From positions 105,338,001 through 105,402,000 of the forward strand of contig OX597820.1 in NCBI GenBank assembly GCA_951406725.2: DNA of 64,000 nt. The letters are read 5' to 3'. The stretch is from Octopus vulgaris. Taxonomy: Eukaryota. A program made the translations under genes and the position numbers. This document shows positions 1 to 53,600 of the stretch, piece by piece; position 1 is the first letter of the stretch, and the number at the start of each line of letters is the position of its first letter. The notes under the pieces are model-generated. The model searched no databases, was not told the origin of the DNA, and saw nothing but the letters and a program-made list of their open reading frames with translations.

Positions 1-1620
1 TTCACTTCCCAGAAACCACAGCTGTTACCATTTCTTTTTATATTATTATAGATTCAGCCTTGCATCCCTTCCTTTTTGACCCATCACTAATCCCTTCCCT
101 CCCCTGTTCCCTGACATACTCACCCAACATCCCCTCTTACTTTTCCCACATCTTTCCACCTAGGATCATTATCCACTATTCTGTTCTCACTCAGCTAAGT
201 TTGCCACTTTTGTTTACTCATTTTTATACTGTTCATTCCTTTTTGCTGCACCACACAAGGTTCATACACTGTCACATTCATGCATCACAGCATACCTTTC
301 TCATTTATTTCTCATCCACTCTGTAGCCTTGTAGATGCAACATACCTCTATTAGACCCTTGGTCAGTCACATATTTAATGGAGAAAGTTGTTTGTACTTT
401 ACAATGCACCAACATGCCTCACTTTCACTCCTGCACATTTCAAAGCATTTAATACTTCAATCACTGGCATATTCAACACTGTATTCAGAATTACTGCACT
501 AACACTGCCTCAGCCATGAGCCCATTTGCATACATACACCATGGTATTATACCTCAACTGCTTTGTTTTCAACACGTCTGTGCTAGCTCGACTCTTTTCC
601 CGACTAGATGCATGTCGGATGTTCACATGCTCTGAGCTCATTTTAGACATAATGTCCCTCTGTTAGACCCCTGTTTGGTCATGTAATAAATAAAGTTACT
701 TGTCTCACACATCACTCCAGTATAGCTGCACTGTCTTTCTTGCTAACCTCAGCAATTACCCATGACAACAGCGCCAGACATGTTGCTTCTAAAAAACCTT
801 CAAGGTACTTCATACACTGCAATCCTGCAGGAAGATCTGCAATATCACCTGAGCTTGCTTTATAGTAAATTTTGATAAGTGCACCTGCACTCATGTATAT
901 GCCCTCACACACATGTAAACACTAACTCATTCCCACACTGCCCAGGTACTGACTGCATATTTTTGCACGCAAAGCCACACCTCTATTTGGACCTATCCAA
1001 GTAGAAAATTGTCCTGTATACACTCCAATGATCCTCTCTCCCGTTATGTGAAAATTTTCCTCGGTCATGTATTTCTTTCTCTTCCTAGATCGTAAGATTT
1101 TTTTTTCTTACAAATTCTCGAGGTGGGGGGTAATGTAGTGACTTCATTTAGGCACAGAGTAGATTCGAACCTGAATCGGTAAATTTTCCATAATATTTAA
1201 ACAGTGTTTTTCTCACAGAAAAGCAATGGTTCCATTTAATATATGGCTTTGCCAGGCTGATTTATATCTTTGCCACTTGACCCTTCTAACTTCATGTATG
1301 CAGTGGAGAATTGAATTGAGATAACAGTCACCCACCTCCCACCAAAGTATATCCATTGTCTTTGCAGTACATCTATTTTTCTGACTAGCTTTATATTGTT
1401 AGGGCATAATTAAATCTCAGAATGAGATTGAAACAGTAATCGCTCGATAATGTAAAGTATAGAAGCCATCTTATCATGGCTAACCACATTGGGGAGGGGG
1501 TGTTACTGTAGCTTTATAGCCCCAAGAGATCTTCGTCTCTAGCTGGCTTTAGACACAATATCTGTGTCCTTGGAGTATTTGTAAAGGGAGGCCATCCCTT
1601 CCTCGCAAGCCTGAGTGATA

Positions 1621-1663
1621 CGCTCGAACTAGTTTCGGGATTGTTGTCCCTCGTCAACGGGTG
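1621..1663 (-). ncRNA. Second copy of the same hammerhead motif (opposite arm)
   Basis: Reverse complement reads cacccg TTGACGA GGGAcaacaaTCCC GAAAC ta GTT cgagcg. Confidence 0.65.
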
Positions 1664-1931
1664 GTAACCACCAGGTAGCGATGAAAGTGAAGGCTCCTTT
1701 GCAAATATATATAAGTTTTTCTAATGGCGTCTGCCACTGATGTCGAAAACAAACAGTAAGCATAATTAAATCTCAGAATGAGATTGAAACAGTAATCGCT
1801 CGATAATGTAAAGTATAGAAGCCATCTTATCATGGCTAACCACATTGGTGAGGGGGTGTTACTGACGCCATTAGAAAAACTTATGTATATTTGCAAAGGA
1901 GCCTTCACTTTCATTGCTACCTGGTGGTTAC

Positions 1932-1973
1932 CGCCCGTTGACGAGGGACAACAATCCCGAAACTAGTTCGAGC
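1932..1973 (+). ncRNA. Minimal type I hammerhead ribozyme motif (U3 variant)
   Basis: gcccg UUGACGA GGGA-caacaa-UCCC GAAAC ua GUU cgagc: stem II 4 bp, palindromic stem III ACUAGU, stem I gcccg/cgagc with one C-A mismatch; predicted cleavage after 1968. Confidence 0.7.
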
Positions 1974-3933
1974 ATATCACTCAGGCTTGCGAGGAAGGGA
2001 TGGCCTCCCTTTGCAAATACTCCAAGGACACAGATATTGTGTCTAAAGCCAGCTAGAGACGAAGATCTCTTGGGGCTATAAAGCTACAGTAACACCCCCT
2101 CCCCAATGTGGTTAGCCATGATAAGATGGCTTCTATACTTTACTTTATATTGTTATAAATACTAGAACTCTGTAAGCCAAAATCAGTTAGTGAATGGAAG
2201 CAACTAGAGATGGCTACAGGCAGACAGCCACTTAAGACAAAGGGAGAAAGAAAACAATCAGTCACTATGATACTTACAACTTCCCTTGACTCTATAGCTT
2301 TCACTCGCTCACTTTCTTTACTCTACAACATTACCCTATCTCTATCTGTGGTTTACTACTACACAATGATGAGAACAGAAACTCACCTAGACAAGGGAAA
2401 TCTACAATATGTAACGGTAAATAAATGTTTGTTTACAACTTGGATCCCTGTTCTTCTTTCATCTTGCACATCTGCAAAAGCAACAACAGTTACAATTGGT
2501 GACTGCCAAATCCAACATATATCATCACAATTCCCGTTACAACAACCACGAAACTTACAAAAACCAATCTTGTTTTCTAACCCAAACACATAAACACGTA
2601 AAGCATGTAACTAACAAAGTTGCAACAAATACTTAATCTTTTTTCATCCTAAACGCATAAAAAACTGCATTACAAAGACTGGCCTTCCTCTTTAAGGCCA
2701 CAAAATACCTCAACTCCCAGACCATTTTAGCAGCTTTATAGGCCCCAGGGCAAATCAATGCACTAGGCCCTATAGTATTCTTTAGTGACAGCAAACCACA
2801 ACATATGTAGATCAGAATTGGACCCTTAGACCAGTGGGGCCGTGGGGCAACAGCAGAGTGTGCAGATACTTTAATGTGGCTGTGCTTAGTTCCCTAAAAT
2901 TACTAATTCCATATAAAATTTGAGTGAGACCTACAATGAAATATTGCTCCTATTTCTGCATCAATATCACAGCTACATATATAAACATTCTAGACAGCAT
3001 CTTTCAAAAGTTTTCTCAAGTCACTTGTCAATATTCACCAACTTCTCCCTCTCCTACTTCTATTATGGCAGCCACTGTTCTTCACAATGTGATGCTTTAC
3101 CTCTATTTAGGTCTGCCCAATCACCATCACTCATATTATGTCCCCCACCAAGGCTTCCATACTTGCCAGTAAAGCCAATCCAACCTTTCCAATCATCCAG
3201 AAATTCTTCACCATTCATGTTTTTCCTATAGCAGTTAACATACAGTTCAAGAACATTAACTGCTTTGATTTCACTCTTCTGGAGGCTATAAAGAGGCCAT
3301 GGGCAAAAGCCCTTCATTCAAACCAAACCATTAACAAAAATATATATATATTTCAGTCCCACTGCACAGCACATTGGGCAAATATCTTCTACTGCAGCCT
3401 GGGGCCAATCAAAGCTTTGTGAGTGGATTTGATGAATGGAAACTGAGAGAAGCTCATTGTATATACATATATGTGTGTACCCTTTTCTTGATATCACATG
3501 ATACTTGTAAATGAACATGATTGTCAGTGAGGCTGTTCATTTCCAGTCTTCTATGAAAAACATGTTGGGCCATGGGAAAATATTACCTTGCCTAGAAAAA
3601 GGTAAGAGTTGGTGGTAAGAAGGGCATCCAGCTTTAGAAAATCTATTGCAATAAATTCTGTCTGACCCATGCAAGCATGGTGAAGTGGACATTAAATGAT
3701 GATGAAGATTGGCTATCTTTCCCATATACAAAAATGAGAAATGTTCAAAACTCTACAAACTTTCAAGCAATACTTCCACTGCTTTCAGAAGTGAATTATA
3801 CCTTCTCAAGGTATATTTTTACATATAGATGGCTTAGGATATTGAGACTTTAAGAGTCTATGACTGAGAAGTACAAGAGAGAAAATATGAACCACTGACC
3901 AAAAGTTGACTAATAGTAATATTCTATCAGCTA

Positions 3934-45200: not shown

Positions 45201-48200
45201 TTGTTTGTTTATTTTCCTGCAAAATTTGGTGATTGCCTTGTATTTCATTGAAGGTTGATAATCCTGAATCCTACAACTGCTTAATGTGTCTTTTTAATGT
45301 AAGAAGTGCCTCAAAATTGAAAATCAAAAGAATTTTCAGTCTCAATCATTTTAGTCCATTTTATAAATTCAAATAGACAATCATTTCAATGTCCAGAAAG
45401 ATCCAAAATCTAAAGCCCTTCAAGTTTCGGGCATATAGGATAAAGGAATATCACTTCATCATCATCATCATCATCGTTTAGCGTCCGTTTTCCATGCTAG
45501 CATGGGTTGGACGGTTCTACTGGGGTCTGTGAAGCCAGAAGGCTTCATCAGGCCCAGTCAAATCTGGCAGTGTTTCTACGGCTGGATGCCCTTCCTAACG
45601 CCAACCACTCCGTGAGTGTAGTGGGTGCTTTTTACGTGCCACCCGCACTGGTGCCAGACAGAGCTGGCAAATGGCCACGAACTGATGGTGCTTTTTATGT
45701 GCCACCGGCACGAGGGCCAGGCGAGGCTGGCAACGGACACGAAACGGGGCGGTGCTGGCAACGGTCGCGAAACGGAAAGTTCTCTTACATGCCACCGGCA
45801 CTGGTAACACATCTGCAATTTCCATTGATCGATTTCGATTCTGATCCTCACTTGCCTCAACGGGTCTTCACAAGCAGAGTTTTGACATGCCACCGGCACT
45901 GGTAGCACATCCGCAATTTCCATTGATCGATTTCGATTCTGATCCTCACTTGCCTCAACACGTCTTCACAAGTAGAGTTTTGTGTCCCAAGAAGGGAAGG
46001 TATGCATACGTAGGCTGGCTCCATCCCATGTAGAAGGCCACGGGTTATGGACTCACTTGTCCTGCCGGGTCTTCTCGCGCACAGCACACTTCCAGAGGTC
46101 TCGGTCTCTAGTCATTTCCTCAGTGAGACCTAAAGTTCGAAGGTCGTGCTTCACCACCTCGTGCTTATAATATTCTTACAAGTTTTTTAAAAATGTAGAC
46201 CCTTTGTATATAAGAGATAAGTTAATCTTTTTATAATTCTTTTAAGAAAAATACTCCAGCTTAGGCAGAACCCATTTTATTAAACCAGTGGGAAATTTAT
46301 ATTGAAACATGTCCACTCAAAATACAGGGTAGCTAATGTCCAAGGGTCAGCTGGAAAATTTCATAGGTTGATCAAGATGCTCTCATGGAATGTGACCAAA
46401 TGAGGCTTATTTTTTGCAGTTCCCCTTGCAGTTCACACACTTCTTTCGTTGGCGTTACAGTGCCTGGATCTCATTGGTGGAGAAGCTTTCATCCTGCTGG
46501 TCAAAAACATTATCAACAGGCGCATTGCTTCTTAACCACATGATTCTGGATTCAGTCCCACTGTGTGGCACATTGGGCAAGTGTCCTCCTACTATAGCCT
46601 CAGGCTGGCCAAAGCATAGTGAATGAATTTGATTGAAGGAAACTGAAAGAAGCCCATAGTATATATATTCTTCTTTATCCCCGTCTGTCTTGATAGACAA
46701 TGGGTTGCGCCAAGGGTGGGGCCTACTTTGATGATGTGCAGCGTCTGCTGTGACTGAACAGTCCAATTCTAGAGTGGCAGTCCTTGGTACAGTCACTGCA
46801 CACGAACATCGATGGGTACGTGTGGGGTGTTGCTGCAGTTGTCCTCCTCCTGTCCCGCCTGTCCAACCACAGCTGTGCTCTCCTCGTTTGTCTCCCACCA
46901 TCACTTGACAACTGGTGTGTTTACATCTCAGTAATTTTGCGGTTCGGCAAAAGAGACTGGTAGGATAAGTACTAGGCTTAAAAGAAAAAACAAATAAGTT
47001 GTGAGGTTGATTTGTTCAACTAAAACCCTTGAAAGTGGTGTCTCAGCATGGCTGAAGCAAGTAAGAGATAAAAGAACAGTAGATATGACGTCATCATCAC
47101 TAGGATACTGGATCCCTGCCAAGTGCTTTTTCATGTAGGGGAGAACAAATGACATTGTTTGAGGCAGATGCAACTGGTTTCCTCGAACGTTTCCCAACCC
47201 AGGATGAGAGTTAGTTCCATCATTTTGAGCCAGAGATAAAGAGACAATCCATGCAGTGGAAACACCTCTCCTCACCTGCTACAAAGACCATGGCCATTTC
47301 ATCCACAGGGAAGGTAATGGTCTCAATTTTGGGGGGAAGCATCTGCCTCAAACAATGTCAGATGGGGCCAAATCAGGAGAATAGGGAAATTGATCAATCA
47401 GTTCAAAGCCACAGACATGCACAGCAGTCATTGAAACTAATGACTTGTGTGCTGGAGCATTTAACTGATGAAACAAAACTCCTTTTGCCAGTTTTCCTGA
47501 GTGCTTGGTCTTGATAGCCTTTTGTACCTGCGTCAGCAAGTTGGCACAGTATTTTCCATTGGTACTGTGGCTCTTTTGAAGGTAGTCAATAAGCACTACC
47601 TTTTGCTTCCCCCCAAAATTGAGACCATTACCTTCCCTGTGGATGAAATGGCCATAGTCTTTGTAGCAGGTGAGGAGAGGTGTTTCCACTGCATGGATTG
47701 TCTCTTTATCTCTGGCTCAAAATGATGGAACTAACTCTCATCCTGGGTTGGGAAATGTTCGAGGAAACCAGTTGCATCTGCCTCAAACAATGTCAGATTT
47801 TGCTGTGATGTGACCAGCCTGGTGTGCTTTTGATCTGGTGTCAGAAGACATGATACTCACCAAGCAGAAAACCTTTATTATGCCAAGTTCATTGTGCAGA
47901 GTATTCTTAACCCCCTCACAGGATATGCTAATAGCATTGGCTATTTGATTTATAGCCAATTGCCTGTCATCCATCACCATGTGGTGAACACATTCAGTGT
48001 TTTCCCTGGTTTTGGTGGTTGTTGCAGGATGTCCAGAGCTTAGGTCATCTTTAAGAGTCTCTCTCCCTCTCCTAAATTCAGCTACCTACTTTTGCATTGT
48101 TGATAAAGCTGGAGTGTCATCCTCTAATGTAGCAACCATGTCAGTATGAATGTCATTGAAGGCTAAAGCCTCTTTCTACAAGTACTTGATCACAGCACAA

Positions 48201-50129: not shown

Positions 50130-50600
50130 CATCATCATCGTTTAACGTCCGTTTTCCGCGCTAGCATGGGTTGGACGGTTTGACCGGAGTCTGGGAAACC
50201 AGGGGCTGCACCAGGCTCCAGTCTGATCTGGCAGTGTTTCTACAGCTGGATGCCCTTCCTAACACCAACCACTCCGCGAGTGTAGTGGGTGCTTTTTACG
50301 TGCCACCTGCACAGGTGCCAGAGGGGTCTGGCATCGGCCACGATCGGTTGGTGCTTTTTATGTGTCACTGGCACAGAAGCCAGTCGAGGCGGTGCTGGCA
50401 TCGGCCACGTTCGGATGGTGCTTTTTATGTGCCACCGGCACAGAAGCCAGTCGAGGCAGGGCTGGCATCGGCCACGTTCGGATGGCGCTTTTTATGTGCC
50501 ACCAGCCCAGAAGCCAGTCGAGGCAGGGCTGGCATCGGCCACGTTCGGATGGTGCTTTTTATGTGCCACCGGCACAGAAGCCAGTCGAGGCGGCACTGGC
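50130..50600 (-). mobile_element. RTE 3' UTR-derived element with internal 67-bp minisatellite
   Basis: Same terminal module as 45455-45650; (cat)n tail at 50130. Confidence 0.8.
50330..50597. repeat. 67-bp tandem repeat, 4 copies
   Basis: Units start at 50330, 50397, 50464, 50531: ggcatcggccacgttcggatggtgctttttatgtgccaccggcacagaagccagtcgaggcagggct. Confidence 0.95.
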
Positions 50601-53600
50601 AACAAAATCTTTTTGTTTTTTCTTCAATCTATAGGGAAATGGATAAATTTGACTTGTATATGCCTAGTACATATCTTTACATATATATGTGTATATCATC
50701 ATCATCATTTTAACCTTCAGTTTTTCATACTTGCATGGTCAGGTGGAATTAGTTGAGGCAGATTTTCTATGACAAAATAACTTTCCTGTCACCAATCGTC
50801 GTCTATTTCCACACAAAATATTTTTTTCCCTATGGTTGGACACATATCTATTGGAAATTGGAAATGCACAACACCATTTGTATGATAGTGACATTCATTT
50901 ACAAGTCAGGATGAGACACGTACATATATGACAAACTTCTTATAGTTTCCACCAACCAAATCCACTCACAAGGTTTAAGTATGCCTGCACAGTATTTTAA
51001 CCAATAATTATTCCTAGTATTAAAGGTAGTGAACTGGCAGACTCATTAGCACACTGGACCAAATGCTTAGCAGCATTTTGCACTTCTTTATATTGTGAGT
51101 TCAAATTCCATCAAGGTTGATTTAGCCTTACATCCTTTTCAGGTCGATAAAATAAGTACCAGTTGAGCACGGGTTAATGTAACTGACTTACAACCTCCCC
51201 CAAAATTTGATTCCAATAATTATTTTTAGTATTAACACATGCACAAAAATTTTGTAGAGGTGTAGTTCTCTGGAGTGAATACTTCCTCATAACATACTTA
51301 GGTCTTATTTTATAAAGCACTGTTAAAATAAAAGTCTGAGTTAAACCTAGTTGAAATTTGAACACAAAATGAGTAGAGGAACAAAACTAAAAACTGTGCG
51401 ATATTTAATCCTTGACTCTGTCACTCTAGGATTACTAAGACTGGCACAAGGCCACATTTTGGAGAAGGATTTAGTCAATTATATCCATCCCATTATTTGA
51501 GTGGTACTTTCTTTTATTGACACTGTTTAGAGGAAAGATGAGGTCAACTGGCAGGGTTTGAACTCAAATGTAAAATGATCTAACTAAATACCACAGGCTG
51601 TTTTGTCTGTCATTCTAAGGATTCTACCAATCCATTATTCCATTAATTATATATTAGGGTTGATTCATTCAGTTACACACATCCTTTATAACTGTCAAAT
51701 GTAAAGAATTATTATTTTGAATTAAAAGTAATTGTTTCTAATTTAGGCACAAACCAGCAATTTTGAGGGTATTAGTCTGTTTCACCACCTTGATTGGTAC
51801 TTTATTGTACTGATCCTGAAAAGATGAAACGCAAAGTCGATTTTGGTTGGATTTGATTTCAGAACATTTTGGTCCAGAAAAAATACCACAAAGCATTTTC
51901 CCTGATGCTGCAACAATTCTGATAGCATTCCACCTTAGTAATATAGTCTTCAACATGGTGGTTCCTATGGAACAGTCATGATGCAGTGGTGATAAACATT
52001 ACTTCTCAGTATAATTACTGCCTTCATCTCTATAAGAGATTTTATAACTAGCTAATTTGTTTAATTATAATCATTTCTATTATAACTACAAGGCCTGAAA
52101 TTTTGCCAGAGAGACTAGTTGATTACATTGACCCCAAAAGGTTGAAAAGCAAAGGTGACCATGGCAGCATTTGAACTCAGATTGTAAAGAGCTGGAAAAA
52201 CTGCCACTAAGTACATATCAATGATTCTACCAGTTTGCTGCTTTAATAATAACTTGTGGGACCTGTGGAGAAGCTATTTAAGAAAGAAAGGATGATTTTT
52301 ATTTTAAGTTATTTCACTTCCAGTCACAATAATATATATAATTTTAAAATTTCCCTCTACTAAGTGGTTTGTGTTTCTCTCTTTCTACCTCTTCAACAAA
52401 CTTTTTAACCCCTCTTCATGTCTTTAACATTTCTCTCTTTCTCTTCATCTTCCCACCCTACAGCATGTCATTAACACTTCTCTCTCCCACTTTTCTCTCA
52501 CCATCTTTTTCTCTCGTCCTTTGCCTCTCCCTTCAACTAACCACATGATTCATTTGGCCGTAGTCTATTATTATACTCCACTATTCTTTCTTCTCTACTC
52601 ACATTTCTCCCCACTTCATTTTTATTCTACCTCTCTAACTAAAGTATAATGGGCAAACGAACAAGCAGATTATTATAGCTTCAAATTTTGGCACAAGGCC
52701 AGCAAATTTTAGTAGGGTGGAACTAGTCAATTAAATTGATTCCAGTGCTCAACTGATATTTATATTATCAGCTCGAAAAGGATGGGAGAGCTAGAAGTGA
52801 AGCTAAGCATTTTGGTATGCAAATGATTCTGCCAGTTGGCTACCTTAATTTAATTTTTGGCACAAGGCTAGCAATTCTGAGAGAAGGGGGAAGTCGATTA
52901 TATCAACCCTAATGCTCAGCTGGTACTTAATTTATCAACCCTGAAAGGATGAAAAGTAAGGCCAACCTCAGCTGGATTGCTTTGATTTGACACAGGATCA
53001 CATTGTGGATGGGTAGGATTCCATAATGGAATGGATAAACACCTGTATTTTATTAACTCTGAGAAATAAATGGTTTAGTCCACCCCTGATGGGATTCTAA
53101 TCCAGAATGTATGAAATATAAATAAATCCCAAAGGCATTTAGTATTAGAAACGTCACTGTTTCTGTACCTTGCTGCACATAAAACAGCGAGTGTCAGACT
53201 AGTGATAACATCATCAGTAGTGTTGTTATCTATACTTTGCCTCCTATTTGTGATAGGCTGTGCAGGAGCTGATACAGTTTATGGATAGCTCCAGTTGCGA
53301 CAATATTCTTCAGTACAGTGGTGATTTAGTTCAAATATTGATTGAAGTAGATCTTCTATGGCCAGATGCTCTTTTTGTTGCCAACTTCCACCTGTTTCCA
53401 AGTAAGGTTAATAATTCTCCTTGGCCAGATGCATTCATGGAATATAGAAAATGAAGGACAATGTATGACAATGCTTGTTTACAACTATTGTGTGATGTCG
53501 AGATAAGCACTCATATTACGCACACAATATATATATATATGAGGGGGTATCACAAAAGGCCTAGTTGGAGGCTCAAACTTCCGAGTTCTTTTACAGGGCT

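Follow-up and report, generated by a model that had tools for sequence, protein, structure and literature searches.

Results

Two inverted arms of a hammerhead-like repeat share one target duplication

The window, the whole stretch of 64 kb that was analysed (G000:C7:105338001-105402000, from a 2.8-Gb octopus genome), contains two inverted arms of a 356-nt repeat unit that lie within an older host repeat and are bracketed by a 13-bp direct repeat. Positions along the unit, counted over window 1404-1759, are given as q. The locus comprises the following features.

1200..1388, strand unassigned: older host repeat, left part; paralogues align over 1200-1401 at 75-85%
1389..1401, plus strand: target-site duplication, left copy; single copy in the host-repeat paralogues and in contigs of other runs
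1402..1403, plus strand: two extra bases at the site-A junction, likely untemplated
1404..1864, minus strand: arm A, 461 nt (1.3 units), starting at fixed site A (q1); the RNA sense is the minus strand
1404..1452, minus strand: Penelope-like tail, ~47 nt from site A to site B, present at a single outer end, with a small hairpin in the fold
1621..1663, minus strand: type I hammerhead-like motif with a U3.G8 core, a 4-bp stem II and a palindromic stem III
1669..1682, minus strand: putative transcription start (1682), together with the 14-nt site that a site-specific LINE duplicates in other copies
1706..1713, minus strand: TATA-like box, about -31 from the putative start
1734..1743, minus strand: snRNA-promoter-like (PSE-like) 10-mer at -61, the same offset as in the U2 genes of this genome
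1746..1749, minus strand: first run of four or more U in the unit RNA
1864..1864, strand unassigned: inner junction of arms A and B, with a 1-nt overlap
1864..2142, plus strand: arm B, inverted, from q328 to about q50, with its outer end at fixed site B and without the PSE-like element
1932..1974, plus strand: second hammerhead-like motif, the mirror of 1621-1663 on the opposite strand
2143..2155, plus strand: target-site duplication, right copy; its first 6 bases match the element at 5/6
2156..2400, strand unassigned: older host repeat, right part, which adjoins the left part in paralogues

Both copies of the 13-mer are located where the initial annotation had placed them (1389-1401 and 2143-2155), with no third occurrence within the 64-kb window. 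Arm A, which follows the path q1>356>105, likewise measures 461 nt from 1404 and exceeds one unit as described earlier; its repeated parts (1404-1508 and 1760-1864) differ at 1 of 105 sites. Arm B is the reverse complement of 1453-1731 (~280 nt). Because five bases of the right duplication also match the element at 1447-1452 (5/6), the outer end of arm B falls within q44-50. The two arms differ at five internal sites, of which three are at CpG positions in one arm or in the family. Each of the five differences is seldom seen in the family, as would be the case for mutations that arose once the copy had inserted. The target duplication bracketing both arms supports the earlier proposal that the copy in the window is a single insertion and one retrotransposition event.

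Within the host repeat, region 1300-1401 has 28 matches in the genome. In 10 of 11 host-repeat paralogues, the left flank runs directly into the right flank, 7 times without a gap, while the right-flank match is absent from the eleventh. Contigs from three of four other runs carry a single 13-mer followed by the right flank; run X18 gave no match at the insertion flank. The direct joining of the flanks in the paralogues together with the single 13-mer in the contigs supports that the 13-bp duplication is genuine. These contigs are probably paralogues, so that the single 13-mer expected at an empty site was recovered but not the orthologous empty site itself.

The left junction is crossed by 18-31 bases in contigs of all four runs (two coded organisms) and the right junction by 26 bases in one contig, crossings at or below our bar of 31 bases. 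A motif built from loose contig ends had no match in the genome. None of the contigs of the four runs spans the whole insertion or the inner junction, as would fit an assembly artefact; however, the arms differ at their five sites, the left junction recurs in every run, and the paralogues confirm the target duplication. A fixed fold-back DNA element, for which the initial annotation expected the same inverted architecture in all copies, is contradicted by inner junctions that vary between copies, with only two endpoint pairs seen twice among 68. Artefact or fixed element, this class of explanation is barely credible.

Most copies of the family end at two fixed sites

The unit has 1,976 candidate places in the genome, and one of its 20-mers has 963 exact genome matches, indicating dispersed copies. 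It is non-coding (356 nt, GC 43.5%, longest ATG frame 63 codons), and an ORF scan of the unit detected no reverse transcriptase (RT) plus GIY-YIG reading frame. Using a best-hit search, two mid-unit searches, and two end-motif searches, we compiled a census of 202 distinct elements, which is a non-random sample in which end positions are BLAST limits. The census contains 85 inverted copies, one complex copy, and single-arm copies ending at site A (48), site B (58), or elsewhere (10). Among 286 outward-facing RNA 3' ends, site A (q348-5) accounts for 125 and site B (q40-52) for 135; hence, 260 of the 286 lie at one of two fixed points ~47 nt apart, which define an optional tail.

Seventy of the 85 inverted copies pair A with B and have an inverted 5'-truncated arm with a one-sided tail. 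None pairs A with A or B with B, and 15 have one or two other ends; under independent choice of sites, like-with-like pairs would make up about half of the inverted copies. Twenty of the A+B copies were drawn from samples picked on mid-unit sequence, which argues that the A+B rule is not made by the end motifs used in searching. TA runs flank 46 of the 70 A+B copies and, as a raw count, 85 of the 202 family copies. Outside TA microsatellites, the A+B copies have a duplication of 12-13 nt in 17 of 24 cases and of 8-17 nt in 22 of 24. A sister family, 72% identical, has the same ends, and four of its six inverted copies are A+B. Across the family, 86 of 252 arms are longer than one unit, and arrays stop at about 2.5 units.

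The two arms usually copy the same stretch of one template

The initial annotation explained the inversion by twin priming with a small deletion, on a template of ~770 nt or a circle. In L1-type twin priming, a chance internal primer lies just past the first cDNA. In the window copy, the arms do fit end to end with a 28-nt gap, arithmetic that we confirm, and inversions of L1 have a median deletion of 14.5 bp (10.1101/2024.08.27.596794). We analysed abutment and arm stops in 68 of the 70 A+B copies (two-piece copies only); arms with <88% identity were excluded from the analyses of abutment, of crossing of the ribozyme cut, and of promoter and arm-end density. An end-to-end fit within 30 nt occurs at the level of chance (19/68 copies versus 21.3 expected; 7/34 versus 10.7 in the end-sampled set). 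Instead, both arms stop within 40 nt of the same template position in 28 of 68 copies compared with 11.1 after shuffling (end-sampled set, 21/34 versus 8.3), and because they tend to stop at the same template position, the arms overlap. Moreover, both primers are at fixed sites in the 202-copy census rather than at a variable internal site abutting the first cDNA, and the junctions examined had no poly(A) at the non-inverted end. With outer ends fixed across the family and abutment at chance, L1-type twin priming with a 28-nt deletion is refuted for the family and highly improbable as an account of the insertion, and the 28-nt gap in the window copy is best read as a coincidence. What stands of the twin-priming proposal is priming from both cut DNA ends, which is likely. 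The window copy requires a template of only 461 nt (1.3 units) rather than ~770 nt; a template longer than one unit is upheld.

In an allele test on 67 copies, arms A and B were concordant at 684 of 715 polymorphic sites, compared with 73% (maximum 80%) for random pairs, and 19 rare variants were common to both arms. The matching end positions and this allele agreement support that, as a rule, both arms were copied from a single template and over the same part of it. In five inverted copies (L015, L016, L025, L119, and L131), however, the arms disagree at two or more linked sites, which suggests two templates or a switch.

Shared alleles and matching endpoints would also arise if the cDNA primed at A snapped back and copied itself as far as B. 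Such self-priming has been proposed for rotifer Penelope elements (PMC3846280), and the window copy, in which A reaches 461 and B reaches 328, is compatible with it. However, arm B should then never outreach arm A, which it does by >15 nt in 33 of 68 copies, and 58 copies start at B without an A arm. These observations refute fold-back copying as a general rule, and we consider it very unlikely as the explanation of these insertions.

The unit carries a hammerhead-like motif and a putative snRNA-type promoter

The hammerhead-like motif in arm A, with a predicted cut between 1627 and 1626, lies 175 nt 5' of site B on the RNA strand, so that the RNA sense deduced earlier from the insertion geometry agrees with the sense of the motif. 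Its layout is that of dimer-dependent animal hammerheads (PMC4209133). No Rfam match at the gathering score was obtained in the window. Stem I of the family motif has 5/6 pairs, and the window copy has a private stem I mismatch at 1662. The dominant subfamily (131 of 149 scored copies) has U3.G8 with GUU, which is not a Watson-Crick 3-8 pair, while an older subfamily (13/149) has U3-A8 with GUC, a known hammerhead variant (PMC3088659); at the aligned position, the sister family has a canonical C3-G8 motif. The stem layout was read from a motif parse in which one family predominates and which failed to pick up most ribozymes of the sister family; this parse does not amount to a covariation test. 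Judged from the core sequence, the expanding U3.G8 subfamily may cleave poorly.

Upstream of the putative start at q279, a 6-mer is found at -59 in both families and at -57 to -61 in 18 of 20 U2 loci; an exact 10-mer is common to the unit and 6 of the 20 loci. None of the 20 U2 loci has a TATA-like box at about -30. The likeness to a promoter is based on direct comparison of motifs and on their offsets, a weight-matrix scan with U2 upstream sequences having been uninformative. From the putative start to the first U-run is 289 nt, which in a tandem places this run about 10 nt beyond site A. Under the U6-type rule, the TATA-like box and the U-run suggest transcription by polymerase III. If q279 is the start, the promoter lies outside the transcript. 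The 14-nt site at the putative start is duplicated by a site-specific LINE in other copies, while the window copy has no LINE; the only domain match of this LINE is zf-RVT.

Altogether, 132 of 250 arms continue beyond the putative start and enter the promoter; in 3 of 250, the arm extends past the start of the second unit. Arm B of the window copy starts just short of the PSE-like element. Arm A holds the whole putative promoter but one ribozyme, and the window copy is predicted not to make circles; with one ribozyme per strand, it is a predicted dead end.

The two fixed ends match the footprint of Penelope-like elements

Purified Penelope protein, a predicted dimer, cuts and extends both strands of preferred AT-rich DNA, and its reverse transcription begins from two internal sites, which delimit the tail of genomic copies (PMC11167929). 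Hallmarks of Penelope elements are inverted arms, a tail on one side, and the targeting of microsatellites (PMC8557442, PMC3846280); the octopus family displays all of these. Because the A and B ends match the Penelope tail and its two reverse-transcription start sites, we regard the element as a likely non-LTR retrozyme whose mobility depends on a Penelope enzyme, a partner that we infer from the footprint of the insertions.

The genome holds elements with RT plus GIY-YIG, their RT score being just below Pfam's cut-off. The inverted copies of these elements that were examined carried the tail on one arm only (2/2). In a sample of 50 loci among 6,136 Penelope candidates, seven of the eight 3' regions that were aligned matched the unit no better than shuffles did (79.5 versus a mean of 79.4). 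The eighth, a 67% match beside the Penelope copy L305 that was considered as a pLTR, was rejected since it is a separate insertion of the sister family in a TA run.

A circular template is favoured over an uncut multimer

Arms cross the predicted ribozyme cut in 169 of 252 cases without an excess of stops there (10 versus 8.6), which argues against linear monomers released by cleavage as the main template. An early impression of stops at the cut was rejected on the same count; the early impression also included stops at q346, within the denser stretch q340-350 described below. Between the repeats of one arm, 69 minor alleles (24 different) are shared and 15 are discordant, while 15 private changes are shared and 164 are not. 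The homogeneity within arms, thus, predates insertion. Among the best 40 of 1,896 candidates, none matches the longest arm (896 nt) over a greater length, the next being 715 nt; a longer source that was lost or lies among unscored candidates is possible.

The same two-site Penelope priming could act on a linear multimer that stays uncut, the transcript of a long master copy. Ribozyme cleavage was dispensable in vitro, and the authors proposed a multi-copy mRNA as the Penelope template (PMC11167929). The dominant U3.G8 core and copy L016, which has two haplotypes within one arm, also fit a multimer, as do extra arm ends near the putative start. In the full sample, the density of arm ends is about double that of nearby positions at q280-289 and triple at q340-350, which hints at some linear templates; of the end-sampled arms reaching q280, 1 of 32 stops by q289. 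On a multimer, however, arm length could only shrink from parent to daughter, and none of the 40 scored candidates could serve as a longer source of the longest arm. Also against it are the 24 different minor alleles present in both repeats of an arm while private changes mostly are not, and the 96 single-arm copies, none of which carries the inner flank of a parent. Two pairs of copies have similar flanks: a LINE explains one pair, whereas in the other the flanks have just 79% identity and the endpoints differ. We consider the multimer unlikely.

Within-arm homogeneity, the lack of a longer source among those scored, and arms that include the upstream promoter lead us to favour a circle over an uncut multimer, and a circular template is, on these sequence comparisons, quite probable. 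Circular templates have previously been proposed for copies longer than a unit (PMC4209133; PMC7229834, discussion). The circle suggested in the initial annotation thus survives, on evidence other than the inversion geometry from which it was derived.

Discussion

The explanation that we prefer, and hold to be probable, is that the locus is one insertion of a 356-nt non-coding hammerhead-like repeat for which a Penelope-type enzyme primed both cut DNA ends at two fixed sites of one RNA, itself probably circular. In the proposed mechanism, (i) rare genomic copies of about two units would be transcribed from the snRNA-type upstream promoter; (ii) two hammerheads would excise a monomer, to be ligated to a circle; (iii) a dimeric Penelope RT-endonuclease would make a 12-13-nt staggered cut in AT-rich DNA and extend one end from A and the other from B; and (iv) the two cDNAs would end, in many cases at nearly the same position, and would be joined through little or no microhomology. 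Continued synthesis around the circle would restore tandem repeats and put the promoter back upstream of the start. Against this scheme, start sites did not differ between strands in the in vitro Penelope system (PMC11167929).

The unit has several properties of non-LTR retrozymes, namely a length in the range of ~170-400 nt, GC below 45-50%, a type I hammerhead motif, and duplications of >4 bp. With metazoan non-LTR retrozymes (PMC7229834; 10.64898/2026.07.22.740005), which in mussels have units of 350-390 nt, it shares a non-coding unit of ~350 nt, a type I hammerhead with a short palindromic stem III, partial tandems, dispersed copies, long target duplications, and co-occurring Penelope elements. 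It differs from them in that the octopus arrays end at about 2.5 units and the dominant core is U3.G8. Non-LTR retrozymes and their likely Penelope partner are already known from the same two sources. Their mobilisation was left open in PMC7229834, whereas in 10.64898/2026.07.22.740005 it was argued from co-occurrence and homology, and local array amplification was suggested. Fixed retrozyme ends, a tail, inverted arms, and A+B pairing were not found in the texts of these two sources; supplementary material may be relevant here, above all Fig. S9 in PMC7229834 and Figs. S1-S2 in PMC11167929.

Endonuclease-bearing Penelope-like elements (PMC3846280, PMC8557442, PMC11167929) resemble the octopus copies in their head-to-head inverted arms, a tail at one end, a hammerhead 5' of the start sites, AT-rich or microsatellite targets, and 5' truncation. 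In contrast, the octopus unit has no ORF, its tail is about 47 nt rather than 30-40 nt, its duplications are 12-13 nt rather than the 8-10 nt of rotifer examples, and it has no sequence match to the local Penelope ends compared. The text available from these three papers mentions neither strict A+B pairing nor a shared template, and the origin of tandem, inverted, and tailed Penelope insertions was called undefined in PMC8557442. L1 twin priming (10.1101/2024.08.27.596794) is alike in that one RNA is primed by two DNA ends and microcomplementarity serves to join the cDNAs; however, L1 uses a poly(A) primer and a spurious internal primer and yields abutting arms, whereas in octopus both sites are fixed and the arms show overlap. 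Newt satellite 2 (as cited in PMC2220036) is also a hammerhead repeat with an snRNA-type promoter, but that promoter is described as polymerase II while the octopus features suggest polymerase III.

A wider reading, which we advance tentatively and rate at somewhat below an even chance, is that a Penelope RT dimer holds one circular retrozyme RNA in a fixed geometry with a subunit on each tail end, so that two-sided insertions are always A+B. The circle would rebuild the external snRNA-type promoter, the expanding subfamily would have a weakened U3.G8 ribozyme, and the site-specific LINE would parasitise the same promoter.

Compared with the rest of its family, this one locus is ordinary, and the separate parts of the picture are already in print. 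The insertion footprint ties the spread of retrozymes to Penelope enzymes and makes the question of mechanism testable, with sharp predictions for the existing in vitro Penelope system: A+B pairing as a rule, one template shared by both arms, and a stagger of 12-13 nt.

A young LINE inserts into retrozyme repeats

A LINE of 5.3 kb was found joined to retrozyme repeats at loci elsewhere in the genome (L-numbers; positions in the 356-nt studied unit are given as q).
L252:1660-6980, with further copies at L344 and L357-L396; same sense as the retrozyme; young 5.3-kb LINE with zf-CCHC, RT and zf-RVT domains

The LINE inserts at about q269-282 of retrozyme repeats, in the same sense, and among 40 copies scored out of 145 candidates, 36 carried retrozyme sequence at the LINE 3' end. 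The retrozymes at these junctions belong to many diverged families, matching two retrozyme references at 69-97%, and the 3' ends of the LINE itself are 94-100% alike between copies. In the second of the scored sets, 19 of 20 copies were full length and 7 of 20 had an exact 14-nt duplication. Tx1 elements with target specificity are known (PMC4494074); our literature search found no report of a LINE that targets a retrozyme.

Short copies and other repeats

In six short inverted copies (L140, L237, L239, L247, L249 and L262), both arms end at q90-98, at a G-rich run, with junction letters that differ between most of them. An old fragment of the unit also recurs.
L004:1940-2006, L080:1112-1164, L239:519-582 and L262:2334-2400; old fragment of q47-115 (83-85%)

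Each time, the fragment lies next to a short stretch taken from the A end, the fixed outer end at q1. The pair is possibly a tiny old insertion with one arm starting at A and the other at B (the fixed end at ~q50), which then spread as part of another repeat. Two tandem repeats in the window bear no relation to the retrozyme insertion.
45787-45982 and 50288-50601; tandem repeats with periods of 98 nt and 67 nt, respectively

Other elements with hammerhead or hammerhead-like motifs

Three further elements carry a hammerhead or a similar motif.
L293-L304; young Penelope family with many open frames of 781 codons
L343:4454-4990; third hammerhead repeat, period about 361 nt, adjoining a Penelope copy
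L313-L342; older sister retrozyme family, 357-nt unit, 255/356 identical to the studied unit

The Penelope family has a U3-A8 hammerhead-like motif close to its 3' end and an optional tail of ~38 nt (7 ends with and 18 without, some loci being counted twice); by its architecture alone, it is a candidate partner of the retrozyme. The third repeat has a U3-A8 core and the same loop II. The sister family, with 3,012 candidate places in the genome, has the canonical C3-G8 core with GUC, and shares the A and B ends and the promoter-like spacing of the studied family.

Within the studied family, sites q224 and q249 separate a dominant young subfamily with U3.G8 and GUU (131 copies) from an older one with U3-A8 and GUC (13 copies), while 5 copies have neither combination. 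The retrozyme may have kept amplifying once its ribozyme had weakened.
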